A DNA stretch of 64,000 nt from Bacillota bacterium (GTDB taxonomy: Bacteria; Bacillota; SHA-98; UBA4971). The notes beneath the pieces are model-generated. The model was not told the origin of the DNA. It did no database searches and saw only the letters and a list, made by a program, of their open reading frames with translations. The stretch spans positions 62,116-126,115 of the forward strand of contig DUSX01000018.1 in assembly GCA_012842395.1 (NCBI GenBank), read 5' to 3'. Positions 1 through 36,139 of the stretch are shown piece by piece (position 1 is the first letter of the stretch; every line of letters starts with the position of its first letter). The position numbers and the translations under genes are program-made.

Positions 1-16
1 CGGCCAGCCGATTGCA

Positions 17-328
17 ATGAACTGGGAGCGTGCGGAGGATGGGCCGGAGCGGCTGCGGGGCGCGGCGCTTCGAGCCATCGACCGGGCCATTGAGGCCCGA
101 TGCCCGCGTCGAAACCCAGGTATCGTCGAGCTTTACGAGCGTTTTCTGGGCGAGCCGGGCGGGAGCCGCGCGAAAGAGCTCCTGCACGACCCGGTGCGTC
201 TTTCAGCGCAACTTCGCACTTCACATCGAAGCGCCGGCGACTCTCGCGCGGAGGGCACGCCGGCGGCTGCCGAGGGATCGGGCGGGACGGGCGCCTCGGT
301 CAAACCCGCGGAAGGAGGTGCGCGGTGA
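17..328 (+). CDS. Hypothetical protein, probably the 3' part of a gene that begins upstream of the window
   Basis: The reading frame is open back to base 1. The stop codon (326-328) lies one base before the ATG of the ferredoxin gene at 330, which suggests translational coupling. No recognisable motif. Confidence 0.3.
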   Translation: MNWERAEDGPERLRGAALRAIDRAIEARCPRRNPGIVELYERFLGEPGGSRAKELLHDPVRLSAQLRTSHRSAGDSRAEGTPAAAEGSGGTGASVKPAEGGAR

Positions 329-329
329 A

Positions 330-767
330 ATGGCTTCAAGGTATGAAACGCTCGACCTGCTGACCCGCGGGAACGACATGGACATCCGGGTGTTCGAGCC
401 CACGAAGTGCACCGGGTGTAGGAACTGTGAGCTTGCGTGCTCCATAGCGCACTTCGGTGCGTTTAACCCGAAGCGGGCTCGCATACGAGTGCTCCGGCGC
501 GGATGTGCCGAGGAGCTTCACGTGTGCAACCACTGCAACGAGCATCCTTGCGTCGCGGCATGCAGGAGGGGGGCACTTACGTGGGACGACGGGGAGGTAT
601 TCGTGGACGAGGCCGCATGCGACCTGTGCGGCGACTGCGTCACCGCGTGCCCGTCCGGCGGGATTCGCGTGTTCGATGGCGACCTTCTTGTCTGCGACCT
701 CTGCCACGGCGATCCTATGTGCGTGAAGTTCTGCACTACCGGGGCCCTTGTCCTGAAAGCGAGGTGA
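330..767 (+). CDS. 4Fe-4S polyferredoxin, AOR-associated electron-transfer subunit
   Basis: Four CxxCxxCxxxC(P) cluster motifs (CTGCRNCELAC, CNHCNEHPCVAAC, CDLCGDCVTACP, CDLCHGDPMCVKFC). GGAGG RBS at 314-318. In frame with track ORF 30..767. Sits immediately upstream of AOR. Confidence 0.8.
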   Translation: MASRYETLDLLTRGNDMDIRVFEPTKCTGCRNCELACSIAHFGAFNPKRARIRVLRRGCAEELHVCNHCNEHPCVAACRRGALTWDDGEVFVDEAACDLCGDCVTACPSGGIRVFDGDLLVCDLCHGDPMCVKFCTTGALVLKAR

Positions 768-773
768 AGGCGG

Positions 774-2612
774 GTGTCGTACATGGATAGGTTGCTGTGG
801 GTTGACCTTGCCGCTGGTCGAACGCGCAAGACCAGGGTGCCGGAGGAATGGAAGTCTTGCTACCTTGGAGGCCGCGGGTTTACTTCCAGAGTGCTTTACG
901 ACCTTGTAGATGCCCACGTCGACCCTCTGTCGCCGGAGAATGTGCTGACCGTCGCCACGGGCCCGTTGGACGGGACTCTGTCGCCCTCATCCGGCAGGTT
1001 CACCGTGGGCTGCAAGTCGCCCCTCACGGGGCTCCTCGGGGATGCCAACTCCGGCGGGCATTTCGGCCCTGAGCTCCGGTTCGCCGGCTACGACGCCGTC
1101 ATCATCCAGGGCAGGGCAAGGGGTCCGGTCTACCTGCTCATCGATGATGACCACGTGGAGCTGCGCGATGCGTCTCACCTTTGGGGACGAGGCGTGTTCG
1201 ATACGGTCAGTGCCCTCGAGAAGGCGCACGGGAGCGATGTCAAGGTGATCGCCATCGGCCAGGCCGGCGAGAACCTCGTTCCGTACGCGAACATCATGGC
1301 GGCGGGCCACAACGCTGCGGGCCGCACTGGCGTGGGGGCGGTCATGGGCTCCAAGAACCTCAAGGCGATTGCGGTGCGCGGGTCGCGCGACATCCCAGTG
1401 GCAGATGACGAGAGGTTCCTCGCAAAGGTCCGTGAATGCCACAGGAAGCTCATAGCGGACCCGACCTACGCTGACTTTTCCGAGTACGGAACGCTGATCC
1501 TCGTGGACATCGCCCAGGCGAGCGGCGGGCTCTCCACGAGAAACGGGCAGCTTGGCCTATTCGAGCACTACGAGGACATCTCCAGCCACGTGTACCAGGA
1601 CACCTACAAGCTCGCCTCCAAGGCATGCTTCTCGTGCATCCTCCACTGCAAGAACTACGCCCGTGTCGCGTCGGGGCCGTATCAGTGCGAGAATATGGGC
1701 CCGGAGTACGAGACCATGGTTACGTTAGGGAGCAGAGTAGGCGTTGGATCCCTCGCGGCCATTCTCAAGGCCAACCAGCTCGCCAACGACTACGGGCTCG
1801 ACACCATATCCGCCGGCACGAGCATCGCGTTCCTCATGGAGTGCTCGCAGCGCGGCCTCATCGACGAGAGATACGAGTGGGGCGACGCGGACTTCGTCAT
1901 CGATTGCCTGCGCAAGATCGCGTATCGCGACGGCATCGGGGCTTTCCTCGCAAAGGGCGTGAAGGCCATGTCGCGCGAGATCCCCGGCAGCGAAGGGTTC
2001 GCTCTTCACGTCAAGGGCCTGGAGCTTCCGGCGTTCGACGTGCGAACCGGCAAGGGCTTTGCGCTCGGCGAGGCCGTGGCGAGCAGGGGTGGAGATCACC
2101 TGCGGGCCCTCCCCAACTTTGAGCTCCTCAGCAAGACCAGGGAGGAAGGGATCCGCTGGTTCGGGAGCCCTGACTGTGTGGACCCGTATACCGAGAACGG
2201 CAAGGTCCCGATGGTCATTTGGCACGAGAACTACGGCGCAGTGTGCGACTCGGCGGAGATATGCAAGTACTGCACGTTTGCAACTTACGCCGTCATGCCT
2301 AAAGATGTTGCGGACCTCCTGACATTTGCGACGGGGCGGGCCTACTCTGAGACAGACCTCCTTACGATAGGCGAGAGGATCGTTAATGTGGAGAGAGTCT
2401 TCAACCTGCGATGCGGTATGACGCCGGATGACGATACCCTTCCCAAGCGTTTTCTGACTGAGGGCCTCGCCGAAGGGCCCGCGAAAGATGTGACGGTGGA
2501 CCTCGGGAGGATGCTCCCCGAGTACTATTCCAGACGCGGGTGGACTCTTGACGGCGTGCCCACCCGAGAGAAGATCGAGGCGCTCGGGATAGAAGTGAAA
2601 GGAGTGGCGTAG
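774..2612 (+). CDS. aor: Tungsten-containing aldehyde:ferredoxin oxidoreductase (AOR family)
   Basis: 612 aa with AOR-family N-terminal domain (RLLWVDL...YLGGRGF) and overall AOR-like architecture. Adjacent to a polyferredoxin gene. Confidence 0.85.
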   Translation: MSYMDRLLWVDLAAGRTRKTRVPEEWKSCYLGGRGFTSRVLYDLVDAHVDPLSPENVLTVATGPLDGTLSPSSGRFTVGCKSPLTGLLGDANSGGHFGPELRFAGYDAVIIQGRARGPVYLLIDDDHVELRDASHLWGRGVFDTVSALEKAHGSDVKVIAIGQAGENLVPYANIMAAGHNAAGRTGVGAVMGSKNLKAIAVRGSRDIPVADDERFLAKVRECHRKLIADPTYADFSEYGTLILVDIAQASGGLSTRNGQLGLFEHYEDISSHVYQDTYKLASKACFSCILHCKNYARVASGPYQCENMGPEYETMVTLGSRVGVGSLAAILKANQLANDYGLDTISAGTSIAFLMECSQRGLIDERYEWGDADFVIDCLRKIAYRDGIGAFLAKGVKAMSREIPGSEGFALHVKGLELPAFDVRTGKGFALGEAVASRGGDHLRALPNFELLSKTREEGIRWFGSPDCVDPYTENGKVPMVIWHENYGAVCDSAEICKYCTFATYAVMPKDVADLLTFATGRAYSETDLLTIGERIVNVERVFNLRCGMTPDDDTLPKRFLTEGLAEGPAKDVTVDLGRMLPEYYSRRGWTLDGVPTREKIEALGIEVKGVA

Positions 2613-4112
2613 GTGGCGAAGATCCTCATCCGCGGCGGAACCGTAGTCACCATGAACAACAGGGGAGAAGTGCTGGAGGGCGCGGACGTCCTCATCGATG
2701 GGCGGAGGATAGCCGAGGTGGTCTGGCCTGGGTCGACCAGCAGGGGGCGGCGGCGTCCGAATGATGAGGATGACGCAGGGGGACCGGGCCCAGATCGGGA
2801 TGCGCCCGGCGGTCTCGGGGTGGGTCCGCCAGGCATTGCCCGGGACGAGGAATGCGGGTCGAGCGCACGTTACGCAGGATTTCACGAGCTCCCCGCGGGC
2901 GGCCACAGGCATGATGTGGACATGATCATAGACGCTTCGGGCAAGATCGTGCTGCCGGGCTTCGTCCAGGCGCATGTTCACCTCTGTCAAACGCTCTTTC
3001 GGGGCCAAGCGGACGACCTTGAGCTCCTAGACTGGCTCAAGAAACGCGTTTGGCCGCTCGAGGGCGCGCACGATGAGGAGAGCGTCTATTGGTCCGCGAT
3101 GCTCGGCATAGCCGAGCTCATAAAGGGTGGAACCACGTCTATCATTGACATGGAGACGGTGCACCACACCGAGAGCGCATTCTGGGCGATCGACTCGTCG
3201 GGCATCCGGGCCGCGTCCGGGAAGGTAATGATGGATTACGGCTCCGACGTGCCCGCGAGCCTCAAGGAGTCCACCCCGGATTCGCTCCGTGAGAGCGAGG
3301 CGCTGCTCGAGCGGTGGCACATGCATGACGACGGCAGGATCCGCTACGCTTTTGCACCCAGGTTTGTCGTGTCCTGCTCGGACGAGCTTCTCGTTCGAGT
3401 TCGCGACATGGCGAGGGCCGCAGGCGTGCTCGTCCACACCCACGCGTCGGAGAATCGCGGCGAGGTGGCGCTCGTGCAGCAAGACAGGGGCATGCGCAAC
3501 GTTGTTTGCCTTCGCGAGCTCGGGCTAGTTGGCCCGAACCTCGTCCTCGCTCACTGCGTCTGGCTGGACGAAGAGGAGATGGCGATCCTGCGCGACTCCG
3601 GCACGAAAGTGGTTCACTGCCCGTCGTCCAATCTCAAGTTGGCATCAGGGATCGCGAGGGTGCCCGAGATGCTCGAGATGGGAATGTTCGTATCGATGGG
3701 GGCGGATGGAGCGCCGTGCAACAACAACCTCGATATGTTTCGGGAGATGCGGCACGCAGCGCTCATTCAGAAAGTGCGTCTCGGGCCCACCGCGCTTCCT
3801 GCTCGGGCGGTATTGGAGATGGCGACGATGGGCGGCGCGCGCGCAATGGGTCTGGAGGATGAGATCGGCAGCATCGAGCCTGGGAAGCGCGCGGATATCG
3901 TGATCGTCGACCTCCACGCGCCCCACGCGGTCCCGGCAGATGGTGTGGACGTGATGGCCCGCATTGTATATGAGGCCAACGCGTCCGACGTGGAGACCAC
4001 CATCGTCGATGGACGAATCCTCATGTACGGGAGGAAACTCCTCGCCTTTAACGAAGATGAAGTGATACGTGAGGCTTCAAAGGCGCTCCGGCGGGTGGTG
4101 CGGAGATGTTGA
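2613..4112 (+). CDS. Amidohydrolase of the MtaD/SsnA (5-methylthioadenosine/S-adenosylhomocysteine deaminase-like) family, with an approximately 60-aa low-complexity insertion
   Basis: N-terminus KILIRGGTVVTMN. Metal-binding region PGFVQAHVHLCQTLFRG. C-terminal motifs HCPSSNLKLASG and GADGAPCNNNLD. A G/P/R/D-rich insert lies between RRIAEV and DVDMIIDASGK. Confidence 0.7.
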   Translation: MAKILIRGGTVVTMNNRGEVLEGADVLIDGRRIAEVVWPGSTSRGRRRPNDEDDAGGPGPDRDAPGGLGVGPPGIARDEECGSSARYAGFHELPAGGHRHDVDMIIDASGKIVLPGFVQAHVHLCQTLFRGQADDLELLDWLKKRVWPLEGAHDEESVYWSAMLGIAELIKGGTTSIIDMETVHHTESAFWAIDSSGIRAASGKVMMDYGSDVPASLKESTPDSLRESEALLERWHMHDDGRIRYAFAPRFVVSCSDELLVRVRDMARAAGVLVHTHASENRGEVALVQQDRGMRNVVCLRELGLVGPNLVLAHCVWLDEEEMAILRDSGTKVVHCPSSNLKLASGIARVPEMLEMGMFVSMGADGAPCNNNLDMFREMRHAALIQKVRLGPTALPARAVLEMATMGGARAMGLEDEIGSIEPGKRADIVIVDLHAPHAVPADGVDVMARIVYEANASDVETTIVDGRILMYGRKLLAFNEDEVIREASKALRRVVRRC

Positions 4113-4909
4113 CTGATGAGGAGAGAATGCGGTATTCCAGACAGCTTGTGCTCCCCGAGATCGGTGAGGCTGGTCAGGAGCGGCTACGGGCTGCTAAGGT
4201 GCTGGTGGTGGGGGCCGGGGGCTTGGGGTCTCCAGCAGCGATGTATCTCGCAGCAGCCGGGGTGGGGACGCTGGGACTGGTGGATCCCGACGTGGTTGAT
4301 GTCTCCAATTTGCAGAGACAGATCCTTCACGGCGTCAACCACCTGGGCCTCGCAAAGGTCGAGTCGGCCAGGCGTGCAATCGGGCGATTGAACCCGAGCG
4401 TTCACGTGGTTCCCTGCCGCATGAGCCTCAACGCCGAGAACGCATCCCAGATCATTGGGGCGTACGACCTTGTGCTGGACGCCGTGGACAACCTCGAGAC
4501 GAGATACGTGGTGAACGACGCGTGCGTGAGGGCCGGCAAGCCTCTGATAGAGGCGGGGGTGCTGAGGTTCGACGGCATGGTGCTCACGATCATCCCGGGC
4601 AAGGGGCCGTGCTATCGGTGCCTGTTCCCTGCGCCTCCACCGCCCGGCACAGTGCCGTCGCCGAGAGAAGCGGGGATCCTCGGCGCGGTGCCCGGGGTCA
4701 TTGGCAGCATCGAGGCACTCGAAGCGCTCAAGATCATCCTTGGTATAGGGCAGACCCTGGTGGGACGGCTGCTTTTGTTTGATGGGCTCGCCATGACGTG
4801 GCGGGAGGTGAGCGCCGCACGCGACCCCAACTGCCCCGCATGCGGCAGCGGCAAAGCGCCTGCTGATTCCGACGGGGGGCGCGGCGGGTCGGAGATTCCT
4901 TTGGAGTGA
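4106..4909 (+). CDS. MoeB/ThiF-family adenylyltransferase (molybdopterin/tungstopterin synthase sulfurylase-like)
   Basis: RYSRQLVLPEIGEAGQERL and the GAGGLGSP nucleotide loop. C-terminal CxxC...CPAC motif. The start overlaps the upstream stop in an ATGTTGA arrangement. Confidence 0.8.
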   Translation: MLTDEERMRYSRQLVLPEIGEAGQERLRAAKVLVVGAGGLGSPAAMYLAAAGVGTLGLVDPDVVDVSNLQRQILHGVNHLGLAKVESARRAIGRLNPSVHVVPCRMSLNAENASQIIGAYDLVLDAVDNLETRYVVNDACVRAGKPLIEAGVLRFDGMVLTIIPGKGPCYRCLFPAPPPPGTVPSPREAGILGAVPGVIGSIEALEALKIILGIGQTLVGRLLLFDGLAMTWREVSAARDPNCPACGSGKAPADSDGGRGGSEIPLE

Positions 4910-5959: not shown

Positions 5960-7042
5960 CTAGCCCGCCAACCGGTAGAGGCTCTCGCAGACCGCGTCGC
6001 CCACCTCGCAGGTGGTAGCTGTTCCCCCGAGGTCGAACGGCTTTGGCGCGTCCTCGAGGAGGGTGCGTTCGACGGCGGATATGACAAGCGCGCCCATGTC
6101 CTCGTATCCCAGGAAGTCCAGCATCATGGCTGCCGCCCATATGGTTGCGACGGGGTTGGCGATTCCCTTGCCCGCGATGTCGGGAGCTGAGCCGTGGATG
6201 GGCTCGAACATAGACGGGTATTTCTTTTCTGGGTTGAGATTCGCCCCGGCCGCAAGACCGATGCTGCCTTGGATCGCTGCACCCTCGTCCGTGAGGATGT
6301 CCCCGAAAAGGTTCGTCGCGACGACTACGTCGAACCACTCAGGCCTTGTGATCACGTACATGGCCGCCGCGTCCACGTGAACCTGAACAGCCTCGATGTC
6401 CGGGTAGTCCTTGGCCACGGCGTGGAACACTTCGTCCCAGAACACCATGCTGTAGTTGCACGCGTTGGACTTCGTCACGGACACGACGCGTTTTGCCTTC
6501 TGTCTTTTCCTCGCCAGGTCAAAGGCATATCTCATGATCCGTTCCGTTCCGTGGCGGGTGAAAACGTTGCTCTGGATTGCCACCTCGAACGGCGTTCCGA
6601 TGTGGACCCTGCCTCCGACTCCGGAGTACTCCCCCTCGGTATTCTCGCGGACGACCACGAAATCGATATCCTCCGGGCCCTTGCCTATCAGTCGCCCGGG
6701 CACGCCGCGGAGCAGTTTGATGGGTCGTAAGTTCACATACTGGTCGAAGGATTTACGGATGGGGAGCAACAGGCCCCAAAGGGAGATATGGTCCGGAACC
6801 AGCCCGGGTGCCCCGACCGCGCCCAAGAGTATGGCCTGATGATCTCGAAGCGCGTCAAGGCCATGTTCATCCATCATGCGGCCGTGCTTTAGGTAGTACT
6901 GGCAACCCCAGGCGAATTCCGTGAAGCTGAAAGTGAGCCCGCCATGCACTTCCGCGGCCACCCTGAGCACTTTGACCGCCTCCGCGGTTACCTCGGGCCC
7001 TATTCCGTCACCAGGAACCACAGCGACGCTTATTGTGTCCAT
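5960..7042 (-). CDS. D-malate/tartrate dehydrogenase (decarboxylating), isocitrate/isopropylmalate dehydrogenase family (DmlA/TtuC-like)
   Basis: 360 aa, near-colinear with E. coli DmlA/TtuC as recalled: VPGDGIGPEV, DQYVNLRP, VRENTEGEYS, NLFGDILTD, FEPIHGSAPDIAGKGIANP. Confidence 0.8.
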   Translation of the reverse strand: MDTISVAVVPGDGIGPEVTAEAVKVLRVAAEVHGGLTFSFTEFAWGCQYYLKHGRMMDEHGLDALRDHQAILLGAVGAPGLVPDHISLWGLLLPIRKSFDQYVNLRPIKLLRGVPGRLIGKGPEDIDFVVVRENTEGEYSGVGGRVHIGTPFEVAIQSNVFTRHGTERIMRYAFDLARKRQKAKRVVSVTKSNACNYSMVFWDEVFHAVAKDYPDIEAVQVHVDAAAMYVITRPEWFDVVVATNLFGDILTDEGAAIQGSIGLAAGANLNPEKKYPSMFEPIHGSAPDIAGKGIANPVATIWAAAMMLDFLGYEDMGALVISAVERTLLEDAPKPFDLGGTATTCEVGDAVCESLYRLAG

Positions 7043-7131
7043 GATAACAGTCCTCCAGACGTGTTTCCACTGGTTTCACGTGTGACGTGGGCGGCCTTCC
7101 CAGGAGGCCTGCCGCCCTGCGCGTGCCGCCG

Positions 7132-7572
7132 TCAGAAGAGAAACCCGCGCGGCAGCGGGACATCCAGCAAGCTCGCGAACACCACATAGAAGACACCGAT
7201 CTCGGCCGCAACCACGAGGAGCGACACCGCGAGCGCGCCCGGCTGTCGCACCCTGATGTCGACGAACGCGGCAAAGATCGTGGATACGAGCACGCTAGCC
7301 ACGTAGAACCCCGCGACCGGGATGAGGATGAGCCACAGTACCATCAGCCCCACAGCCGCTCCCAGGGTTCGCATGTTCGGGAGTTTGAAGGGCTTCCCCG
7401 AGCCTTTCGCCGACCCAGAAATCACGAGCAACCCAATGGACATTACAACTGTAAGGGCCAGAACCCATTCCGGAAACAAGGCGTCGAGGTCGGGAAGACC
7501 CCGGAGTTGCACCCCGAACACCAATGCCAGGACAAGCACGAAGAGAGCGGAGATGCGATCAACGGTCAGCAT
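7132..7572 (-). CDS. tctB: Tripartite tricarboxylate transporter small membrane subunit TctB
   Basis: 146-aa hydrophobic protein directly downstream of tctA and overlapping its stop. Typical TctB size and position. Confidence 0.6.
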   Translation of the reverse strand: MLTVDRISALFVLVLALVFGVQLRGLPDLDALFPEWVLALTVVMSIGLLVISGSAKGSGKPFKLPNMRTLGAAVGLMVLWLILIPVAGFYVASVLVSTIFAAFVDIRVRQPGALAVSLLVVAAEIGVFYVVFASLLDVPLPRGFLF

Positions 7573-9091
7573 AAGCGCCCCCCTTCCTGCGGCGGGCCGT
7601 GGACGAGGACAGGTACGGCCACGCGAACGACACCAGGGTCATGAGGATGAGGATGATGGAAATGGGGCTCCTCACGAATATGAGCCACGGGAACTGCCAT
7701 GCCCTCGAGATGAGGAGCGACTGCAGGAGGCCCTCCTCGATGATCGGTCCGAGGATGAGTCCAAGAACGATAGGTGCCGCGTTGAAATCGAGCTCCTTAA
7801 GGATGTATCCTATGATCCCACAGCCGAGCATCACCCACACATCGGCCATGTTGTTCCTGATCGCGTACGATCCGATGATGCTCAGAAAGATGATGGATGG
7901 TGCCAGAAACCTCAGGGGCGCGCGCGACACGAGCCTGTGGAGAGCTGTGCCCAAGGCAAGGCCTACCACCATCATCATGAGGGTGGCGACGAAAAGCGAG
8001 AAGATGAACCCGTAGGTGATGTCGGCGTGCACACTGAAGAGCTCCGGCCCTGGCCGGAGGCCTTGTAGCAACAGGCCACCGTATATCACGGCATCGACGG
8101 GTGTGCCTGGGACTCCCAGGGTAAGGAGGGGCACCAGCCCACCTCCGATGGTGGCGTTGTTGGACGTTTCGGTGGCGATGACGCCGTCAATGATCCCGGT
8201 GCCGAACTTCTCAGGGTACTTCGAGGCGCGTACGGCTTCATTGTAAGCGATGAGGTTGGCAATGTTCCCGCCCGCACCGGGTATGATCCCGACGATCGTC
8301 CCGATGACGCTGGAGCGCAGGAGGTTTCCTGGCTGGCTGAGCACCTTGCGTATGGTTGACATGATGACGCCCCTCTGTCTCACCAAGCGCACAGCCTCAT
8401 AGGCCTGCGCCCCCTGGAGCACAAGGGACAGCACCTCCGGTATGCAGAACAGCCCTATGAGGGCACACACTAGTTGTACCCCGCCTTGTAGGGCTGGCTC
8501 CCCGAACGTGAGCCTAACGTTTCCCCCGACCGGGCTGATGCCGATCATGCTTATCAGTAGACCGACCGCCCCGCCAATGAGGCCCTTGAGGATCGACTTC
8601 GATGCCAGGCTCGCTATGATGCTCAGGCCGAACACGCCGACCCAGAAGTATTCCGGGGGCCCGAAACGAAGAGCAATCCGTGCTAAGGGCGGCGCCAGGA
8701 ACGCAAGCACCGCCACTCCGAAGAGCCCGCCGATGACCGAGGATACCGTGGCAACCACTATGGCTTCTTGGCCTCTCCCGGCCTTCGCCATCGGGTACCC
8801 GTCGAAGCATGTACCAATGGAAGAAGGCGTCCCAGGGGTGTTGATGAGTATCGCGGAGAAGCTGCCGCCGTATATTGCAGACATATAGATGGCGCCCATG
8901 ACCACGAGGCCAGTGAGTGGCGGCATGACGAACGTAAACGGGATCACAAGCGCTACAGCCATCGTGGCTGTGAGGCCTGGCAGTGCGCCTGCGATGAGGC
9001 CGGCCACTGTGCCTACGAGCATCAACAAGAGATTGCCCGGCGAAAGCACCTGCGTTATCCCAGACACCAAGGCGTCCATTCGCATCACCAT
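7559..9091 (-). CDS. tctA: Tripartite tricarboxylate transporter large permease TctA
   Basis: 510-aa polytopic protein. N-terminal ALPGLTATMAVALVIP and NTPGTPSS motifs typical of TctA. Confidence 0.85.
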   Translation of the reverse strand: MVMRMDALVSGITQVLSPGNLLLMLVGTVAGLIAGALPGLTATMAVALVIPFTFVMPPLTGLVVMGAIYMSAIYGGSFSAILINTPGTPSSIGTCFDGYPMAKAGRGQEAIVVATVSSVIGGLFGVAVLAFLAPPLARIALRFGPPEYFWVGVFGLSIIASLASKSILKGLIGGAVGLLISMIGISPVGGNVRLTFGEPALQGGVQLVCALIGLFCIPEVLSLVLQGAQAYEAVRLVRQRGVIMSTIRKVLSQPGNLLRSSVIGTIVGIIPGAGGNIANLIAYNEAVRASKYPEKFGTGIIDGVIATETSNNATIGGGLVPLLTLGVPGTPVDAVIYGGLLLQGLRPGPELFSVHADITYGFIFSLFVATLMMMVVGLALGTALHRLVSRAPLRFLAPSIIFLSIIGSYAIRNNMADVWVMLGCGIIGYILKELDFNAAPIVLGLILGPIIEEGLLQSLLISRAWQFPWLIFVRSPISIILILMTLVSFAWPYLSSSTARRRKGGAYADR

Positions 9092-9286
9092 CCTTGCTCA
9101 GTCGACTTGTGACTTGGCCTGCGCCGCAGGCCGGCTGGCCCGTGACCTAGTGTGCGAGAGCAGCGGGGTCGGGGCGGCACGGAGTCCGAGATTCCGCTCC
9201 AACCCCGCGCGCACAGTTCCGGCTACGCCGTCCGGCTACGCCGGTTAGGGTACGCCTGATTCGGCATGTCCAGCGGTACCTGATGC

Positions 9287-10252
9287 CTATTTGACCACTC
9301 CCAGGTCTTTCAGAAGCTTCTCATAGTGGACGCGCCTGGTCTGAACGAATTTCTCATACTCGCTAGGCCCCATGAACTCGAGGTCGAAGGCCATCTCCTG
9401 CATCTTCTTTTGGAACTCGGGGTCCCGGTTGACCTTGTCAAACGCGTCCGCCAGGATCTTGACGATCTCGTCAGGCGTGTTGGGAGGGACAGACACGCCT
9501 CGGTACGCGCCTTCAACCACGTCGTATCCGAGCTCCATGAAAGTGGGGGCGTCAGGCAGAACCGCCGAACGCTTTTCAGACGCTACCGCGAGGACTCGCA
9601 TTTGGTCTTTGTACTGAACTGCCATGGTGGTGTACGTCATGAGACCGGTGACGTGCCCTCCGAGCAGTGCCGGGACCACTGCGCCTGAGCCTGTGAACGG
9701 TATGTAGGTCATCTTGACATTGGCAGCCTGGTTCAGCTCAAGGACGCCAAGGTGGTTGGCGGACCAGCTACCGCTCCCTCCAAGTGTCACGACCTCCGGA
9801 TGCTCCTTGGCGTAATCGATGAGGTCCTTGAGTGTCTTGAAGGGGCTATCTTTCCTCACCACCAGCGCGTTCGGAGTGCTTTCGAAACAGTACACGCGCT
9901 TGAGCTGCTCGGTCTTATAGCCCGCGTCTGTACGCTGCAGGGGTTGAAGTATGGTGTGGGGCAAATTATCCCCGGCGATCGTGTACCCATCCGGCTTGGA
10001 GCGGACGAGCTCAGACCAGCCGACAGCCCCGCCTCCTCCTGTCTTATACGATATGATCACCTTGACGCCGAGGACTTTCTCGAGGAAAGGCTGCTGCAAG
10101 CGGGCGGTAATGTCAGACTCACCGCCCGGATCGAAACAGATAAGGTAGTTTATGGGTTTCTCAGGAAACTTAGGAGCTGCGGACGCCACGGAACCGAGCA
10201 GGGCCAGCGACACGAGGACACAAACGGCAACGATTCTGGTAAAGGCGCGCAT
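9287..10252 (-). CDS. tctC: Tripartite tricarboxylate transporter substrate-binding protein TctC (Bug family)
   Basis: 321 aa with signal peptide. Bug/TctC-like fold motifs (KFPEKPINYLICFDPGGESD). Confidence 0.8.
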   Translation of the reverse strand: MRAFTRIVAVCVLVSLALLGSVASAAPKFPEKPINYLICFDPGGESDITARLQQPFLEKVLGVKVIISYKTGGGGAVGWSELVRSKPDGYTIAGDNLPHTILQPLQRTDAGYKTEQLKRVYCFESTPNALVVRKDSPFKTLKDLIDYAKEHPEVVTLGGSGSWSANHLGVLELNQAANVKMTYIPFTGSGAVVPALLGGHVTGLMTYTTMAVQYKDQMRVLAVASEKRSAVLPDAPTFMELGYDVVEGAYRGVSVPPNTPDEIVKILADAFDKVNRDPEFQKKMQEMAFDLEFMGPSEYEKFVQTRRVHYEKLLKDLGVVK

Positions 10253-10312
10253 TTCTTCTACCTCCCTGTAGTCCTTGTGTTCGTCGCAGTTCGAGTCTGT
10301 TCCGACACTACT

Positions 10313-11611
10313 TCAAAGCTGCTGCAGCGTGACCTTGCCTGCCATACCACCTCCCGGTACAGGGACTACGATTCCGGCGCAAGGCATGACGATCGAGTCA
10401 TAGTCCTTACCATGCTTGGACTCAACTAGGTGGAGGGCCTCTTCAAGGCTCTTCGCAGGGGTGAAGAAAAGCTTTCTTGCAAGAACGTCGTCAAGGGACG
10501 ATACGAGGACAACCTCTTTATCTCGCAAGACCCGGGCTAGGCTGTAGGCCTTATGCCCGCCCAACACGAACCCGGCAGCGAAGCGACGGAAGATATCATC
10601 GAGGCTGCGTGCCTCTGTCATCCAACTCTCGAACGTCGGCTCGCCGCATCCCTCGGGGCACTCGGCCAAGAGCACGATAGTGCCGCCCTTTCTCACGACT
10701 CGGTCGGCGTTGTCGATGGCTTTCTGTGCCTGGTACACGTTGATGTCTTTGGGGAATCCTCCCGCGCTCGCGATGGCCACGTCGACTTCGCGGGCGACCG
10801 GCGCTACGACGTAATCCGAACATATCTTCACGCCTTCGAGCCACGCTTTCTCAACGTCCCCTGCCACCACGGCCGCCACCTTGCCCACCCCGTCGGTGAC
10901 CGTGTTCACGATGAAATGGACGCCGGCTTTACGCGCGGCTTCGACCATCTCGATGTGGACTGGGTTTCCATCGAGGTTGCATACAGCCGCAGCCTCGGAA
11001 GTCATGAGCGAGTGATTGTGAGAGATGGTGGCCCGGCCCGACACGCCTGGCAAGATCGCCTTGCGTCCTCCGGAGAACCCGGCGAAGTAGTGAGGGGAGA
11101 TGACGCCGGTCGCTATGACGAAGTCCGCCTCAAGGACGATGCGGTTGACGCGCAGTTCCGTCCCGAAGGGGAGAGTGCCCAAGGGGACCAGGTTCTCCTC
11201 GTCGTCGCAGTCATGATTCACGACGCGATACGTCTCGCAGATCTCGCGTCCCAACGTCAGCCGCATTTCTTCAGGGGTCATTCCTCTATGGATCCCGGTG
11301 GCGACGACGAGCGTCACGTCCTCGTCGGCTATTCCCGCTTCCCGGAGCTCGCTGAGGAGAGGGGGCAGGATGTCGGTATAAGGTGTGGGTCTTGTGATGT
11401 CGTTCACGATGATCACGACAGTCCTTGCGCGCCTGCGCTTTACCTCGTGGAGCAGGCTGTCGGTCCCTGTCGGATGTCTGAGTCTCGAAAGGACTTCGCT
11501 GCGCAGGTCGGCGAGGGGCTTCGCCTCTCGACCGGTCAACACCTGCGGATTCACGAGCACGCCTATGTCCAGCGGAACACAGGACCTCCCGTACTTCAAC
11601 TGAACGACCAC
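10313..11611 (-). CDS. LarA-family nickel-pincer-cofactor-dependent 2-hydroxyacid racemase/epimerase homolog
   Basis: 432 aa. HYFAGFSGGRKAILPG (catalytic Lys in GGRK), ATGIHRGMTPEE and the conserved His-containing N-domain (DUF2088-like). Confidence 0.7.
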   Translation of the reverse strand: MVVQLKYGRSCVPLDIGVLVNPQVLTGREAKPLADLRSEVLSRLRHPTGTDSLLHEVKRRRARTVVIIVNDITRPTPYTDILPPLLSELREAGIADEDVTLVVATGIHRGMTPEEMRLTLGREICETYRVVNHDCDDEENLVPLGTLPFGTELRVNRIVLEADFVIATGVISPHYFAGFSGGRKAILPGVSGRATISHNHSLMTSEAAAVCNLDGNPVHIEMVEAARKAGVHFIVNTVTDGVGKVAAVVAGDVEKAWLEGVKICSDYVVAPVAREVDVAIASAGGFPKDINVYQAQKAIDNADRVVRKGGTIVLLAECPEGCGEPTFESWMTEARSLDDIFRRFAAGFVLGGHKAYSLARVLRDKEVVLVSSLDDVLARKLFFTPAKSLEEALHLVESKHGKDYDSIVMPCAGIVVPVPGGGMAGKVTLQQL

Positions 11612-11817
11612 GAAGGCACCCCCTAACCTTCAGCAGGCCCGGGACTGGAAGCGCGGCGCCGCGCCTGAGCCGAGCTGTACCACAGCGTCACACTGCCTGC
11701 GACGCACAGCGCGGAGCCCCCGACGCACGACGCCCGGCACGGCGAGCGTCCTGACCCAAATCGCCCGAACCAGTGACCTCGGGCCGTGTTCTGCGCGAGT
11801 TCCGTACTAGGACAAAA

Positions 11818-11832
11818 GCAAACTGCGTGCCA
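11818..11832 (-). promoter_or_regulatory. Sigma-54 (RpoN) -24/-12 promoter driving the LarA-homolog/tctCAB/dmlA-like operon
   Basis: Minus-strand sequence TGGCAC-GCAGT-TTGC is an exact match to TGGCAC-N5-TTGC. It lies about 205 bp upstream of the LarA-homolog start, and a sigma-54 activator is encoded immediately upstream. Confidence 0.65.
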
Positions 11833-12021
11833 ACGCCGTCCAAACCGTCTTGCGCTTGGACGGGAGGAAGGGAAGCCACCCGTGGCATGGGCTTGCCAGG
11901 CACGATGATGTAGCACATCAGCAACGGAGCTGTTACATTGGCGCAACACATGGAGCGGCTCAAGCCCAGGCAGCTCTTCTGCCACCTGCCTATGGGGCGA
12001 GACGCAACGCTGGTTTTCGAT

Positions 12022-14070
12022 TCATGGTTCGCGGCCGCCTTCACGCTGCGCGTCCCGCCTTGCCGCTGTGTGTTCGCTCCTGAGCTTGCGCCAAAGCGTG
12101 GTCCGGTTGATTCCGAGGCGACGGGCGGCTTCGCTCTTGTTGCCGCCGCATGCACTGACCGCACGGGCTATGCTCTCGCGTTCCACAGCTTTGATGAGGC
12201 TTTCGAGGTCGCGCCCGGTGCCGCTGTCGCGGGGACTGGCCAGAGTGCCAGCGGCTGAGGATGTGTCACCGTCGATCTCGGTAATGCGGGGCCATCCTTC
12301 CGACCCGGGCGTGTCACCTATGGCATCGAGCACGTCGTTGTTTGTGACACACCCGCTCTCCGACAAGACCAGGCACTTCTCGACGGTGTTTTTGAGCTCC
12401 CTCACGTTGCCATGCCAGGGATGAGCAAGAAGGACCGCCAACGCATCACTCGTGAAGCCCTGGAAGGGCGTACCGAGCTTTGCAGATAGTGTCCTCGCAA
12501 ACGTCTCAGCCAGAAGCGGTATGTCCTCAGGCCGCTCCCGCAGCGGGGGCAGCGCGAGCTTGAGGACGTCAAGCCGGTAGTACAGGTCTGCCTGAAACAG
12601 GCCCTCTGCAACGAGTTTACGGAGGTCTTTGTTAGACGCGGCGATGACACGGACGTCAATGGGGATTGTGCGGTCATCCCCCAGCCGCATCACCTCCTTT
12701 TCTTGGAGGACCCTGAGAAGGCGGGCCTGGAGACGCAGGGGCATGCCCGCGATCTCATCCAGGAAGATCGTTCCGTGGTGGGCCAGCTCAAAGAGGCCTT
12801 GTTTGCCTTCCCGCTTAGCCCCGGTGAAGGCACCTTCAACGTAACCGAACAGCTCGCTCTCGAGCAAGCTTTCCGGTAATGCGGCGCAGTTGACCGCGAC
12901 GAACGGCCCATCGCGCCTAGCACTCGCATTGTGAATGCTTTGGGCGAAAAGCTCTTTCCCGGTTCCTGTCTCTCCGAGGATGAGGATCGTGGAGTCCACG
13001 GCAGCAAAGCGTCTAGCCTTGGTGATGGCAGCCTGGATCGCGCGGCTGGTGCCTACGATGTCGCCGAACGTGAACCTCGCCACGTGGCCGCGGGCATAGA
13101 GCCTCTTGCGCAGGTCTTTTTCCAGCGCTTGCAACCTGCTGACATCCTGGAAGGTCGCGATGGCGCCCGCACATGAGCCGCTCACCACGATAGGCACACG
13201 GGTCACATTAACGAGAGTGCCGTTTATCCGACACACCTCGGGCGATGCGGGCTGGGAGGAAGGATTCGACGAGGACTCGCGGCGCCAATCCCGGCCCGAC
13301 GAGGCGGCTGCGAGGATCGCGGCGAAACCGGCTTCAGGCAACACCTCGTCTACGTGACGCCCTACGACGTCGGCTGCGGCGCGGCCTGTGAGCCGTTGGG
13401 CGGCTTCGTTGAAAACAGTGATGTGCCCTGCATCGTCTACAGCGATGATGCCGTCGGACACGTTGTCTATGATGAGTTTGAACTGCTCCGCCCGTGCCGT
13501 CTCGTGTTTCTTGACCCATAGCACGCGCGAAGCCTCGTCGATGGCTTGCCTGACAGCTTCCGGCCCAGATTCTATCAGCACGGCTCTGGCGCCGTGCTTC
13601 TCGGCGGTTCGAACAGTTATCACTCCGCCTATCAGGACATCAACTCCATCTCGCAGGGCTTCACGGACTGTCGTGTCGGCGTCGCGGGCGCGCTCGAGGA
13701 CGATCTCCTTTATCTCCACATCCATCGACTCGCTCAGCGTGCTCGCCCCGAGCACCATGTTCTCAAAGCCCACTATGGCAATGCGGCGCCCGAAGAGCCT
13801 TGCCTTCGCAACGGCGCGCACCACGTCGTAAGCTGTCACGCGGATCTCCACCACCGGCAGGCCGACGTCTTTGGCGTCCTGGAGCACGAGGGCCGTCCCC
13901 CCGCGACTGATGAGGACCTGAACCCCCTCCCTCTTCAGGCGCCGCGCGAGCGCCGGTGCCTCGCCCAGAAGGGCGCGCTCCACTCTGACTGGCTTTCGGA
14001 CGGTTCTCGAGACTTCGCAGGCCACCGCAGCGAGGTTGTCGTACGGTGCTATGAGCGCGATATCAGGCAT
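12022..14070 (-). CDS. Sigma-54-dependent transcriptional activator with PrpR-like N-terminal sensory domain, PAS domain, AAA+ sigma-54 interaction domain and Fis-type HTH
   Basis: [15 protein letters not shown] Walker A and ESELFGY (GAFTGA-region equivalent). C-terminal [21 protein letters not shown]-terminus resembles the propionate-regulator PrpR_N domain. Confidence 0.85.
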
Positions 14071-14496: not shown

Positions 14497-15165
14497 ATGG
14501 CAGTGGGGCCCAGAGATGGCGATATATGGTTACTGCATGGCTCCACAGGCGACTATCGCAGAGGAACACGGCTAAATGAACAAAAGAGGAAGCTAAACGT
14601 TCGCGAAGGCCGCGGCGGGTTTCCGCTTGGGTCCTCTGGCATGACTCCGTTGGGGGGGACGGGAATGGGCAGGTTGAAGGTGCTTGTGCTTGACGACGGA
14701 ACGGTGGATCGCTTGGTCGATCTGGACTCGGCCGTGTCCGTTGGTGACGTCGAGGTCGTCGGCACCTTGAGGATCACGCCTTGTTCAGCCTTGGCAGCCA
14801 CAACTGCTCCAGCAGGCGCGGGCGTCTCAGGCGACGCCGTCGGTTTTGGCGCGGTGCTGCGTGAATCACCGGCTGTCTTGTCGAAGGACTCGTGCGCGTC
14901 AAGCGGGGGGGCCGGAGGTGATGCGTGGGCTGCTCAAGGCGCGCGGATGGAGCCTGTTGAACGAGAGGCGCCAGTGTACCTTACCAGGACCGAGCTGGAT
15001 GTCCTGAGGCTCCTCGCCAAGGGCTTGAGGAACAAAGACATCGCGCAGGAACTGTACATCAGCGTCAACACCGTGAAAACGCACGTGGCCAGCATATTCA
15101 GGAAACTCCGGGTGAAAAACCGGTCCGAGGCCGTGAGATACGTGTGGAGCCGTGGCGTGCGTTGA
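14497..15165 (+). CDS. LuxR-family HTH transcriptional regulator, with no recognisable receiver or autoinducer domain
   Basis: C-terminal LTRTELDVLRLLAKGLRNKDIAQELYISVNTVKTHVASIFRKL. The N-terminal 120 aa are low-complexity. A more likely start is ATG 14665 (MGRLKVLVLDD), which follows a G-rich RBS. Confidence 0.6.
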   Translation: MAVGPRDGDIWLLHGSTGDYRRGTRLNEQKRKLNVREGRGGFPLGSSGMTPLGGTGMGRLKVLVLDDGTVDRLVDLDSAVSVGDVEVVGTLRITPCSALAATTAPAGAGVSGDAVGFGAVLRESPAVLSKDSCASSGGAGGDAWAAQGARMEPVEREAPVYLTRTELDVLRLLAKGLRNKDIAQELYISVNTVKTHVASIFRKLRVKNRSEAVRYVWSRGVR

Positions 15166-15635
15166 GCCGAGGTTCACCCGTTGGAGCCACCACAAGTCCC
15201 CCGTTCGGGCAATAGCGCGCCCGGCCCGCGATTGATAGACTGGGGTTGCCAGAGGCGACCTGGGCCGGCTCAGGCCAGCGCATCCAGTCTCCCGCAGCGC
15301 TAGGTGGGGAAAGGGGGTGGACTCGGTGTACGGAAGGCTTGCTGGCAGAAAGATCAGGATGGACCTTGCGATCGACGGGTATTGCTTCACTTTCAGACTC
15401 TGGGGTCATCGGGTCACGATAGGCTAAGCCCGGCCGCGGGGAGCATGGGCGGGCGGCGAGACAACGGGTTGCTGCCTCGCCGCCTGCCCCCGCTGTTTGT
15501 GTCGACGATGGCAGGTCCTTCCCGGCCTGAACCCAGGAACAGGGCAAAGCACGTCGCCCAGGGCGTCGTCGCCCTGCTCAGGACCGGCAAGGCCCGGCTG
15601 CCGATGGACGTCGCCAGTCGCTGACACACCCTCGC

Positions 15636-17000
15636 ATGGGCCGACGGTTGAAGGAGGGGGCCTCGACGCGGATGGATGAGAAGGTCTACACGATCTCCCC
15701 TGAAGTGCGAGTGTCCGAGGTTGAGGGCCAGTATGTGCTGGTGAATCCCAAAAACATCGAGTGGGTCAAGTTGACTCGTGAGGCGTATGAGCTCGCGGAA
15801 AACCCTGGGAACCTGGTAGCGAGTGACCTTGTCAAGCGCGAATGCGTCCTGCGGGGAGCTGACCCCGGAGAGGTGGAGGGGCTTCTCCGTTACCTCCTGG
15901 AGGCGGGCTTCATCGTGGAGGCTGGAGAAGCGGTGGGTCTCGGTCGAGTGTACTTCAACGTCACTGACCGATGCAACCTCTCTTGTCCAGCATGTTACTT
16001 CGCGGCCGACGACATGCCTCGTGCCGGCGACCTCTCGACCGAAGATGCGCTATCCCTGCTGGATGTGCTTGCGGCCGAGAAACCGAGGTGTCTTGTGATA
16101 AGCGGGGGAGAGCCGTTTCTCCGTGACGACATAGGCGACATATTGGCGTCTGCCGCGGGCAGATTTGACGACGTCGTGCTCCTCACCAACGGGTGTCTGG
16201 TCGGCGAGGCCGAGGCTAAGCTCGTGAAGGACTGCGGAGCCAGGGTGCAAGTGAGCGTCGAGTCAGACGACCCCATTCTCCACGAACTGGCACGAGGTTG
16301 CGGCAGTTTCGACGCGGTGATGCGGGGCATCCGTGCATTGCAGTCCGCGGGCGTGAGCGGGATCGAGATCGTGCCCACCCTCACCAGGAGGAACCTCGGA
16401 CGGCTGCAAGGCATCGTAAAGCTTGCCAGGGATCTCGGGGTCGGCTACCACTTCAGCCTTTTCATGCCAGTAGGTCGAGGCGCATGTCACGCAGCCGATC
16501 TTTCGATAGCGCCTCGCGATCTCCTTGCGTGCTTCGCCTCGTTCGTGGAGTCGACCCTTCAGGACCGGGAGGGCTTGTCAGAGGCTCTCGACGCTGATCT
16601 TGCGATAGACCTGCGCGTGAAAGCCGGGTGTGGTGCCGGATACAAGATCCTCAGCGTCGGCCCGGACGGCGCCGTGTATCCGTGCCCGTTGATGCACCGT
16701 CCCGAAATGCTCCTTGGAAGGCTGCCGGGTGGCTCGCTTTCGCGGATGCGCCGCGTGGGCAGGGGCATTGTGCCCCAGGTAAATGAGATCCCCAGTTGCT
16801 TCCGGTGTAAGGTGGCGTACTTCTGCGGGGGCGGCTGCCGAGCGCACGCGCTCGCTCAGGGAGGCAACCTCTTCGCCGTCGACCCGTATTGCGAGTTCTA
16901 TCGAAGGGCCTACATGGCCTTGCTGACGGGTTGGCGCGACGGCCGGACCATTGTTGAGAATGCCAAGTCGGTTGCGATGGCTCTTGCAGATGGGTTGTGA
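15636..17000 (+). CDS. Radical SAM/SPASM-domain peptide-modifying enzyme with N-terminal PqqD-like RiPP recognition element
   Basis: CNLSCPACY (CxxxCxxC). C-terminal Cys-rich SPASM region (CPLMH...CFRCKVAYFCGGGCRAHA). N-terminal approximately 85 aa is PqqD-like (VSEVEGQYVLVNPKNIEWVKL...LLEAGFIV). Alternative start ATG 15672. Confidence 0.85.
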   Translation: MGRRLKEGASTRMDEKVYTISPEVRVSEVEGQYVLVNPKNIEWVKLTREAYELAENPGNLVASDLVKRECVLRGADPGEVEGLLRYLLEAGFIVEAGEAVGLGRVYFNVTDRCNLSCPACYFAADDMPRAGDLSTEDALSLLDVLAAEKPRCLVISGGEPFLRDDIGDILASAAGRFDDVVLLTNGCLVGEAEAKLVKDCGARVQVSVESDDPILHELARGCGSFDAVMRGIRALQSAGVSGIEIVPTLTRRNLGRLQGIVKLARDLGVGYHFSLFMPVGRGACHAADLSIAPRDLLACFASFVESTLQDREGLSEALDADLAIDLRVKAGCGAGYKILSVGPDGAVYPCPLMHRPEMLLGRLPGGSLSRMRRVGRGIVPQVNEIPSCFRCKVAYFCGGGCRAHALAQGGNLFAVDPYCEFYRRAYMALLTGWRDGRTIVENAKSVAMALADGL

Positions 17001-17788
17001 AAGGCATGACGGGCATCGTGTATTCGTCGCTGGCTTTCAGTTTCGTCATCAGGGTCCTTGCGGACATCAAGAGGTCGTCGAAGGAAAGCGTGAGTCTCAA
17101 GAGTGACCGGACTATCGACGGCATGCCGCTTTTGGGAACCGCCCTGCTTACCGTCGGTTGGGTGGCGTACGGCAGAGACCCGCTGCTGGCGACCGGCCTT
17201 TGCGTCAGGAGGCTCGCGGCATGCCCTTGGTGGCATATGTGTGCTCTATGTGTGACGGGCTTTGCGATGAGTCGGCTGGTTCAGGCCTACCTCTTCCGGT
17301 CGACCGTGAGGGCCCTCGTAGAAAGTGGTGCCATCAACCCCGGCGGCGCGTACCTGGCTCTCGCCAATAGCAGCCCCGCGAGCGTCGCGCTTGTGGGGGC
17401 GGCCATGACGTTCTCGCAGACCTTTGTGGAGGAGTTTGCGTTCCGCGGCCTTGCGCTGCCCGGTGCCGCGGCGATGGTCGAGAACCTTGGTGCTCCCCCC
17501 GAGTGCGCGCTAGTGGCCGGGGTTGCATTGTCGTCCCTAGCCTTCGGCCTCTTGCACTTCGTCCCGATGAAGGTGGCGACCCGCGGCAAGAGCGCGCTCC
17601 TCTCGTGGTACGCCCTGGTAGTTCCGTCGAGTCTGGCCGTCGGTTTCTGCGTTCTAAACCAAATGGCGGGTTCGCTGTGGCCCGGGTGGCTCGTCCACTG
17701 GTGGATGAATTACGCGGGCCTTGTGTGGAGCAAAGCCGAGCGACGCTGGGAACGGGCGATCGCGGCGCCAGGGCGCAGCGAGGCGTGA
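16997..17788 (+). CDS. CPBP-family (CAAX protease / bacteriocin-processing) intramembrane metalloprotease
   Basis: Motifs EEFAFRG (EExxxR), FGLLHF (FxxxH) and HWWMNY (HxxxN) in a polytopic protein. The start overlaps the radical-SAM stop (GTGA). Confidence 0.75.
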   Translation: MKGMTGIVYSSLAFSFVIRVLADIKRSSKESVSLKSDRTIDGMPLLGTALLTVGWVAYGRDPLLATGLCVRRLAACPWWHMCALCVTGFAMSRLVQAYLFRSTVRALVESGAINPGGAYLALANSSPASVALVGAAMTFSQTFVEEFAFRGLALPGAAAMVENLGAPPECALVAGVALSSLAFGLLHFVPMKVATRGKSALLSWYALVVPSSLAVGFCVLNQMAGSLWPGWLVHWWMNYAGLVWSKAERRWERAIAAPGRSEA

Positions 17789-17839
17789 GGAGGCGTTGAT
17801 GCAGGCATGCCGCCACGGCCAAGTCACGGGGGGATGTTT

Positions 17840-18109
17840 ATGGAGCATTGGTCCATGGAGACGAGACTCGCTGACGCATGCCTCGCGCTGGGGCACATAT
17901 GCACTGTGGAAGCCAAATGGGCCGAAGATCCCGAGTTGAGGGCGGTCATGTTGGGCCATGCGCTTGGGTTCCTGAATGCGGCCTGGCTCTTTCTCCCATC
18001 TTGCGCGTCCAGAAGGTCGGTTGGGATGGAAACCACAGCCGAGCCTGTGGCAGGAATCGTGTGCCGGCTGACGAAGGATAAAAAGGCTGATACGTACGAC
18101 GGCTCATGA
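17840..18109 (+). CDS. Small Cys-containing protein (88-90 aa) downstream of the CPBP protease, a candidate RiPP precursor or accessory protein
   Basis: Strong GC3 codon bias, consistent with real coding in this genome. G-run RBS at 17828-17833. Four Cys. No homology recognised. Confidence 0.4.
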   Translation: MEHWSMETRLADACLALGHICTVEAKWAEDPELRAVMLGHALGFLNAAWLFLPSCASRRSVGMETTAEPVAGIVCRLTKDKKADTYDGS

Positions 18110-36105: not shown

Positions 36106-36139
36106 AGCGTGCCGCGAAGCGTGCGTGCTGAATCCGCGA

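Follow-up and report, generated by a model that had tools for sequence, protein, structure and literature searches.

A conserved gene cluster predicted to join a malate racemase, a TctCAB-type transporter and a D-malate/tartrate dehydrogenase behind a sigma-54 promoter in uncultured Bacillota

A cluster of six genes, in which a homolog of the nickel-dependent racemase LarA is placed next to a tripartite tricarboxylate transporter (TTT) and a dehydrogenase of the TtuC/DmlA family, was analyzed in a 64-kb stretch of Bacillota DNA (the window). The window matches the 244-kb contig k127_103867 of a biogas-fermenter metagenome (ENA ERZ925058), window positions being record positions minus 62115, and the putative operon together with its activator gene occupies positions 5960-14070 on the minus strand. 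Neighboring genes, which include those for an Fe-hydrogenase, an aldehyde:ferredoxin oxidoreductase, BofC, YunB and SpoIIM, indicate that the host is a spore-forming anaerobic member of the Bacillota with a G+C content of about 62%. The six co-directional genes described in an earlier reading of the same DNA (the original prediction) were all recovered as open reading frames (ORFs) on the minus strand between these limits. Pfam and NCBIfam matches agreed with the families first given for all six, and the order larAH-tctC-tctA-tctB-ttuC behind the activator gene was borne out (Table 1).

Table 1. Genes and predicted regulatory features of the cluster, in window coordinates and in order of transcription
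Feature	Position	Strand	Basis
Sigma-54 activator, 682 aa, PrpR_N + PAS + Sigma54_activat + AAA_lid + HTH_8	12022-14070	-	Pfam
Tandem imperfect palindromes GTTGCGCCAATGTAAC and GTTGCTGATGTGCTAC, putative upstream activating sequence	11910-11947	-	Alignment of upstream regions
Sigma-54 -24/-12 element TGGCACGCAGTTTGC	11818-11832	-	TGGCAC-N5-TTGC pattern scan
LarAH6 malate racemase homolog, 432 aa, Lar_N + LarA_C, GTG start	10313-11611	-	NCBIfam NF052593, Pfam
TctC-family solute-binding protein, 321 aa	9287-10252	-	Pfam PF03401, 171 bits
TctA large permease, 506 aa from ATG at 9079	7559-9079 (longest ORF from 9091)	-	Pfam PF01970, 483 bits
TctB small membrane subunit, 146 aa	7132-7572	-	Pfam PF07331, 44.7 bits vs cut-off 29.1
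TtuC/DmlA-family dehydrogenase (Iso_dh), 360 aa	5960-7042	-	TIGR02089, Pfam

The LarA homolog scored 518.4 bits against NCBIfam NF052593 (nickel-dependent malate racemase, LarAH6 family; curated cut-off 500) and stayed under the cut-offs of LarAH5 (394.7 against 462), lactate racemase LarA (363 against 460) and LarAH10. In a PDB search the nearest solved structure was Mar2 (6d6z, E=3.8e-89). Placement among the LarA homologs and inspection of the substrate pocket, both suggested with the original prediction as a check, put the protein within the characterized malate racemase family, LarAH6. The catalytic residues D71, H108, H174 and K297 (D72, H108, H174 and K298 in LarA numbering) are present, as are R74, K184 and H200 (R75, K184 and H200), which bind the cofactor nickel-pincer nucleotide (NPN). 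Neither set varied in a family alignment of 32 sequences or in those aligned loci from which sequence was recovered, so that the conserved His and Lys residues, on whose retention the original prediction had been made to depend, are all in place. The GGRK motif that it had called catalytic is indeed there, as G181-G182-R183-K184, but K184 tethers the nickel-pincer cofactor and is no catalytic base.

Malate racemases are marked by H or Q followed by K at the positions of W358 and T359 in LarA (PMC11770544). The specificity positions of the window racemase read Y175-F176, Q296 and H353-K354, and with H353, K354 and Q296 it carries the full malate racemase signature as drawn from PMC11770544 and PMC7583248, including Q before the catalytic Lys. 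Mar2 from Thermoanaerobacterium thermosaccharolyticum (6d6z and 7s91; PMC7583248) falls under the same curated hidden Markov model and has the same catalytic D/H/H/K, cofactor-binding R/K/H and Q before the catalytic Lys, as well as the same H-K pair, which is predicted to bind the second carboxylate of malate. It differs in that the two proteins are only ~45-50% identical and in having Lys173 where the window racemase and most LarAH6 proteins have Phe (Phe176). For the characterized LarAH6 enzyme, Mar2, a Km of 0.38 mM for L-malate has been reported (PMC7583248). The LarA homolog is thus predicted to be an NPN-dependent malate racemase of the LarAH6 family. A distinct substrate pocket in those racemases that are linked to ttuC was considered and rejected, the 20 signature positions showing the commonest LarAH6 pattern; with the same signature in TtuC-linked and most other LarAH6 proteins, there is no sign of re-specialization.

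Characterized enzymes of the TtuC type act on D-malate, L-tartrate and meso-tartrate, and sequence does not separate these activities. The dehydrogenase encoded in the window matched TIGR02089 (tartrate dehydrogenase/decarboxylase) with 534 bits against a cut-off of 470, aligned from position 3 to position 352 of a 352-position model, and among solved structures it best matched the Pseudomonas putida tartrate dehydrogenase/decarboxylase (3flk, E=4e-115). It belongs, over its full length, to the equivalog of E. coli DmlA and the TtuC proteins of P. putida and Agrobacterium vitis; the near-colinearity with E. coli DmlA that had been claimed from the outset came out as 54% identity over the full length with 9 gap positions. 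We therefore predict a tartrate dehydrogenase/decarboxylase that is also a D-malate dehydrogenase. In the published assay of racemase activity, it was DmlA that was coupled to the reaction to report D-malate specifically (PMC7583248). In E. coli K-12, dmlA stands beside the divergent regulator gene dmlR with neither a racemase gene, as the original prediction had it, nor a TTT transporter in the locus, whereas ttuC of the window lies behind a sigma-54 activator gene, in a predicted operon with a nickel-pincer racemase and TctCAB.

All three components of a TTT system are encoded together, each above its Pfam cut-off, in the order C-A-B, as against the canonical C-B-A. PDB matches of the TctC protein were Bug/TctC proteins (E=5e-39 to 1e-21), and TctC is 70-97% identical among the clusters of related genomes. 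The start of tctA was set at the ATG at 9079 on the basis of gene calls in relatives and their alignment. This leaves a GC-rich spacer of 207 nt between tctC and tctA (9080-9286, minus strand), which contains a strong hairpin without a U-tract; in relatives the spacer measures 150-460 nt, and its sequence is not conserved.

The gene upstream of larAH encodes a predicted sigma-54 activator with a Sigma54_activat domain (233 bits) in which Walker A and B motifs and a GAFTGA loop, the element that contacts sigma-54, could be read from the translation. Its PDB matches were the AAA+ domains of FleQ, ZraR and NifA. The best NCBIfam models were PrdR (NF041552, 430.2 against a cut-off of 795) and PrpR (TIGR02329, 399.9 against 499.2); the description of the protein as PrpR-like accordingly stands for the domain architecture but not as an equivalog assignment, both scores being below the cut-offs. 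With PrpR of enterobacteria and PrdR of Clostridioides it shares the domain order PrpR_N-(PAS)-AAA+-HTH_8 and the position of a metabolite-sensing activator gene adjoining its target operon, the difference being that the window activator would control another operon. One-component activators of the PrpR_N type are common, and have been catalogued, in Clostridiales (PMC6615313).

Between the activator gene and larAH lies a gap of 410 nt that contains the sigma-54 element. The consensus promoter that had been placed here was confirmed: TGGCACGCAGTTTGC matches TGGCAC-N5-TTGC with zero mismatches and is the sole perfect match in the 64 kb (0.11 expected; at least one match in 10/100 shuffles). The count in the window is weak by itself, and it is the position of the site, together with its conservation in all 10 related loci, that makes it convincing. 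In 10/10 TtuC-linked loci for which the upstream region was available, TGGCAY-N5-TTGC occurred 77-221 nt upstream of the racemase gene; it was not found upstream of the unlinked paralog described below (L013). Transcription is predicted to start ~196 nt upstream of the GTG codon of larAH. Farther upstream, two adjacent imperfect palindromes of the family pattern GTTGC-N6-GCAAC (11932-11947 and 11910-11925) have centers 22 bp apart and lie ~80-130 bp upstream of the -24 element. In an alignment of the window with 10 related loci the pair was kept while the flanking sequence drifted. The palindromes are putative activator-binding sites, in the layout expected for an enhancer-binding protein. No rpoN gene was found in the 64-kb window. 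A riboswitch or other structured element in the ~196-nt leader or the 207-nt spacer was also considered and rejected, as there was no Rfam match at E<=1; folding z-scores of +0.88 for the leader and -1.58 for the spacer indicated no unusual stability, and neither stretch was conserved.

The remaining junctions comprise 60 nt between larAH and tctC, the 207-nt spacer, a 14-nt overlap of tctA with tctB and 89 nt between tctB and ttuC, and a Shine-Dalgarno sequence precedes each operon gene. A simple scan for terminators inside the operon gave weak, sub-background matches alone, none of them convincing. The five genes larAH-tctC-tctA-tctB-ttuC would thus form one transcript from the sigma-54 promoter. 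The G+C content of the operon (window 6001-11000) is 0.585-0.613, slightly under the 0.62-0.66 of its flanks, a mild hint of acquisition from elsewhere.

For analysis of conservation, the LarAH6 alignment was used to scan one genome per prokaryotic species. Among the 434 relatives so obtained, the 80 nearest were taken with their flanks, and linkage was called by tblastn with the window proteins. The full order activator-larAH-tctC-tctA-tctB-ttuC was found in L004, L006, L009, L010, L011 and L012 (loci are numbered with L), and L005 and L008 showed the same beginning of the cluster up to the ends of their contigs. Orthologs of the activator, 56-90% identical, lie directly upstream of larAH in L004-L006 and L008-L012. 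A larAH-ttuC pair without transporter genes was seen in L007, and in L014-L017 larAH and ttuC are likewise paired; in the longer contig of L015 the pair converges on an activator-tctC-tctA-tctB unit. Loci L088-L092 hold the cluster in linked form, rearranged or partial. Altogether two arrangements of the pairing were seen, spread over about a dozen genomes at species level plus five additional metagenome contigs, and all of the linked genomes are metagenome-assembled genomes (MAGs) of uncultured Bacillota. Two of the database labels met in this search look wrong, namely "Betaproteobacteria bacterium" (L004, JBLNCC010000124.1) and "Mycobacterium leprae" (L030, JBLNEM010000517.1). In L004 the operon and its flanking genes have the same order as in the window and 87-98% protein identity to it, with 67% for the LuxR-type regulator.

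In a neighbor-joining tree the linked racemases formed one clade of 15 tips; L013, the one tip without linkage, comes from the MAG that also holds L017 and is a second paralog there. The dehydrogenases are 76-98% identical within the clade, and other metagenomic homologs reach 63% at most. The reverse test was carried out by scanning metagenome contigs with the dehydrogenase. A LarAH6 gene adjoined ttuC in 5/5 metagenomic loci with a TtuC protein of at least 78% identity. At 63% identity or less, no LarA-like gene was present in the recovered flanks of 74/75 metagenomic ttuC loci, many of these contigs being short. The sole locus of the latter group with a LarA-like gene (L160:510-4419) has it 1.9 kb upstream of ttuC, and the protein is 31% identical to that of the window; racemase and dehydrogenase may have been paired here independently, within another LarA group. 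From the reverse test and the single clade it follows that the pairing is a lineage-specific innovation under selection and not general to ttuC genes. Racemase identity within the clade is 57-88%, and over this range both the linkage and the catalytic residues persist, which speaks for an active enzyme under purifying selection. Chance does not account for finding the genes for racemase, TctCAB, dehydrogenase and activator together.

Taken together, these results make it somewhat more probable than an even chance that the cluster serves the catabolism of malate enantiomers, as an operon that is induced by its substrate and depends on sigma-54. The activator would sense a hydroxy-dicarboxylate, or a metabolite derived from one, through its PrpR_N and PAS domains, bind the tandem GTTGC-N6-GCAAC sites and open the sigma-54 promoter, which would drive larAH-tctC-tctA-tctB-ttuC. 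TctCAB would then import malate, the nickel-pincer racemase would interconvert L- and D-malate, and the TtuC/DmlA enzyme would decarboxylate D-malate oxidatively to pyruvate, CO2 and NADH, giving a stereo-convergent route by which both enantiomers could be used. In a serial form of this model L-malate would be converted to D-malate and on to pyruvate; in a branched form, imported D-malate would go partly to pyruvate and partly, by way of the racemase, to L-malate and fumarate/succinate. A malate-fermenting anaerobe would need the branch from L-malate to fumarate and succinate as an electron sink. Serial and branched use are inseparable in silico, and both are possible. The data establish the family memberships, the intact catalytic residues and the conservation of gene linkage, promoter and upstream motif; which substrate is used, whether the genes are co-transcribed, what the activator senses, which way flux runs and whether the cofactor is available are inferred. 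The sequence of uptake, stereo-inversion and oxidative decarboxylation set out in the original prediction is supported in this form by the family assignments and by the recurring linkage.

Catabolism of malate enantiomers is the simplest interpretation, as it would use the main characterized activity of each family. No glycerate kinase or other gene for the follow-up of tartrate metabolism is conserved beside the core in the diverged relatives, and a self-contained core fits pyruvate as the product because pyruvate enters central metabolism directly; D-glycerate or oxaloglycolate would need a follow-up enzyme. Several points nevertheless weigh against it. D-Malate is considered rare in nature, and since malic enzyme yields pyruvate from L-malate in one step, the advantage of two enzymes is not obvious. 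The dehydrogenase also passes the 3-isopropylmalate dehydrogenase model NF002898 (416 bits, cut-off 393), the hairpin between tctC and tctA could modulate read-through into the distal genes, and all members of the clade are uncultured MAGs. None of the cofactor genes larB, larC and larE was found in the 84-kb span of the source contig covered by the search. Moreover, malate racemases epimerize tartrates (PMC11770544) and TtuC uses tartrates, so sequence cannot fix the substrate.

The absence of larB, larC and larE from the window, already remarked on in the original prediction, held among its larger ORFs, which contain no such domain, and LarB-, LarC- and LarE-type proteins were not found within 10 kb beyond either window end. 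Genes of these types (LarE as a PP-loop ORF) were likewise not found adjoining LarAH6 in the 80 related loci, from which we conclude that adjacency is not to be expected in the LarAH6 family. The missing cofactor genes bear on a further explanation, namely that the cluster runs in the anaplerotic direction (from pyruvate, CO2 and NADH to D-malate and then L-malate), or that, for want of cofactor synthesis, the racemase has no activity and its linkage survives as a relic. For purple bacteria, a hypothetical scheme in the literature leads from pyruvate through (R)-malate to (S)-malate (PMC8307300), and the negative search over 84 kb would suit a relic. Dedicated high-affinity uptake and a ligand-sensing activator in one conserved unit point instead to catabolism of an external substrate, and the catalytic and cofactor residues are invariant across the clade, with the linkage maintained. 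We regard this explanation as very improbable.

LarAH6 genes elsewhere among the related loci stand in several other contexts. In two MAGs of the Atribacterota (L049:537-7921 and L068:744-9390) the LarAH6 gene lies inside a tartrate-type cluster with the L(+)-tartrate dehydratase beta subunit TtdB, an upstream neighbor presumed to be TtdA, TRAP components DctP/Q/M, a TtuC-like gene scoring 413-419 bits (below the 470 cut-off) and a PrpB/methylisocitrate-lyase-like protein, followed by LarAH6. This context suggests that in some lineages LarAH6 enzymes serve tartrate metabolism as epimerases. In a third operon type a LeuC/LeuD-like hydratase pair of the aconitase family is followed by TctC-TctA-TctB and then LarAH6 (L038:5156-11263, L046:5030-11263 and L067:2919-11266; also L060 and L077); in the Spirochaetaceae loci this operon is preceded by a sigma-54 activator gene. 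D-Malate or a related acid may be a product or a substrate of the hydratase. The commonest neighbors of LarAH6 were a GlcD-like FAD-linked oxidase and an Fe-S protein with CCG domains, in 17/80 and 15/80 loci, respectively, an example of the pair being L021:7070-9779, with about 15 other loci. The pair could be a D-2-hydroxyacid dehydrogenase that partners the racemase.

The main rival to catabolism of malate enantiomers is a route for tartrate stereoisomers, in which TctCAB would import tartrate, the LarA homolog would act as a C2 epimerase of D-, meso- and L-tartrate, and TtuC would turn meso-tartrate into D-glycerate and CO2 or oxidize L-tartrate to oxaloglycolate, so that every tartrate isomer became usable. 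The racemases Mar1, Mar2 and LarAH62 do epimerize D/meso- and L/meso-tartrate, LarAH62 with ~1/60 to 1/180 of its efficiency on malate (PMC11770544); epimerization is a minor side activity in all racemases tested so far, and this counts against the route, as does the pocket signature of the TtuC-linked enzymes, which is that of most other LarAH6 proteins. The dehydrogenase speaks for tartrate in that its best model is named for tartrate dehydrogenase and its best structural match is the P. putida enzyme. The two Atribacterota loci, with LarAH6 in a tartrate-type gene context, point the same way, and plant-derived L-tartrate can plausibly be expected in biogas feedstock. Against this, no gene for a glycerate kinase, a hydroxypyruvate reductase or the metabolism of oxaloglycolate is conserved next to the core, although they may be encoded at other sites in the genome. 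On this evidence a dedicated tartrate route is possible but unlikely.

The hydratase-type loci and the match to NF002898 raise another alternative, that the enzyme pair acts on some other 3-substituted (2R)-malate (3-isopropylmalate, 3-methylmalate or a C5-C7 2-hydroxy-dicarboxylate) imported by the TTT system. LeuCD-like hydratase genes do adjoin other LarAH6 genes together with TctCAB; the window cluster has no LeuCD-like gene. The top-scoring models of both enzymes are those for malate and tartrate, and the conserved pair H353-K354 marks the binding of a C4 substrate by its second carboxylate (PMC11770544). An alkyl-malate substrate is therefore considered very improbable.

A broader function would take in both the malate and the tartrate route. 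The racemase/epimerase would bring all malate and tartrate stereoisomers to one (2R)-specific decarboxylating dehydrogenase under the control of the sigma-54 sensor, as a stereo-convergent funnel. We offer this tentatively, as an idea with a modest chance of being correct.

Other features of the window and its surroundings were noticed alongside the cluster. Beyond the activator gene, on the plus strand, positions 14497-18109 contain genes for a LuxR-type regulator (14497-15165), a radical SAM enzyme (15636-17000) whose best matches are peptide maturases of the SPASM type, an Rce1/CPBP-type intramembrane protease (16997-17788) and an 89-aa product. This region looks like a modified-peptide cluster (ribosomally synthesized and post-translationally modified peptide, RiPP). 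In L004-L006 and L008-L010 the LuxR-type regulator gene again adjoins the operon, and several of these loci also have the genes for the radical SAM enzyme and the protease. On the other side, window positions 1-4909 encode an Fe-hydrogenase, ferredoxin, aldehyde:ferredoxin oxidoreductase, an amidohydrolase and a MoeB/ThiF protein, and the 10 kb upstream of the window (L085:1-9985) encode xanthine-dehydrogenase-like molybdoenzymes and a second amidohydrolase; the two stretches together are possibly a locus for fermentation of purines or N-heterocycles. An ORF of 572 aa (34453-36171, minus strand), antisense to the threonyl-tRNA synthetase gene and without a Pfam match, is most likely one of the spurious long ORFs typical of high-G+C DNA.

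Gene contexts of LarA homologs have been compiled by Desguin et al. (2020). In the accessible part of their Table S1, the top listed neighbor of group 6, to which the window racemase belongs, is malic enzyme (15%), and neither an Iso_dh-family dehydrogenase (TtuC/DmlA) nor Tct genes appear for that group. The contexts of LarAH5/Mar1 are more similar to the window, with TctC/TctA in 26% and an AAA+/Fis-type regulator in 16%; they differ in that a gene of the altronate dehydratase family is a neighbor in 100% and no tie to TtuC/DmlA is given there. The group 5 neighbors mean that a link between a malate racemase, a TTT system and a sigma-54-type regulator is not unprecedented. A full-text literature search for the racemase together with tartrate dehydrogenase or D-malate returned no description of the operon. 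The route had been called uncharacterized in the original prediction, and the combination was indeed found in no searchable paper. What is new is that an uncultured clade of the Bacillota has a conserved combination, predicted to be under sigma-54 control, of malate racemase, TTT transporter and D-malate/tartrate dehydrogenase. As every component comes from a known family, the advance is one of pathway context, with no new mechanism or biochemistry.

Malate racemases are reported to be the largest group of the LarA superfamily, and their in vivo roles have been called an open question by the authors who characterized them (PMC7583248 and PMC11770544). The cluster suggests that, through the racemase, both enantiomers become available to a single D-specific enzyme, or that L-malate is supplied from D-malate, and both suggestions are testable. 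The five-gene module of transporter, racemase and dehydrogenase is compact and could be moved into a host that carries larBCE. If all malate and tartrate stereoisomers do converge on the dehydrogenase, the cluster would give a malate racemase its first defined physiological role and regulon, and would amount to a tartrate/D-malate pathway so far undescribed in anaerobes.

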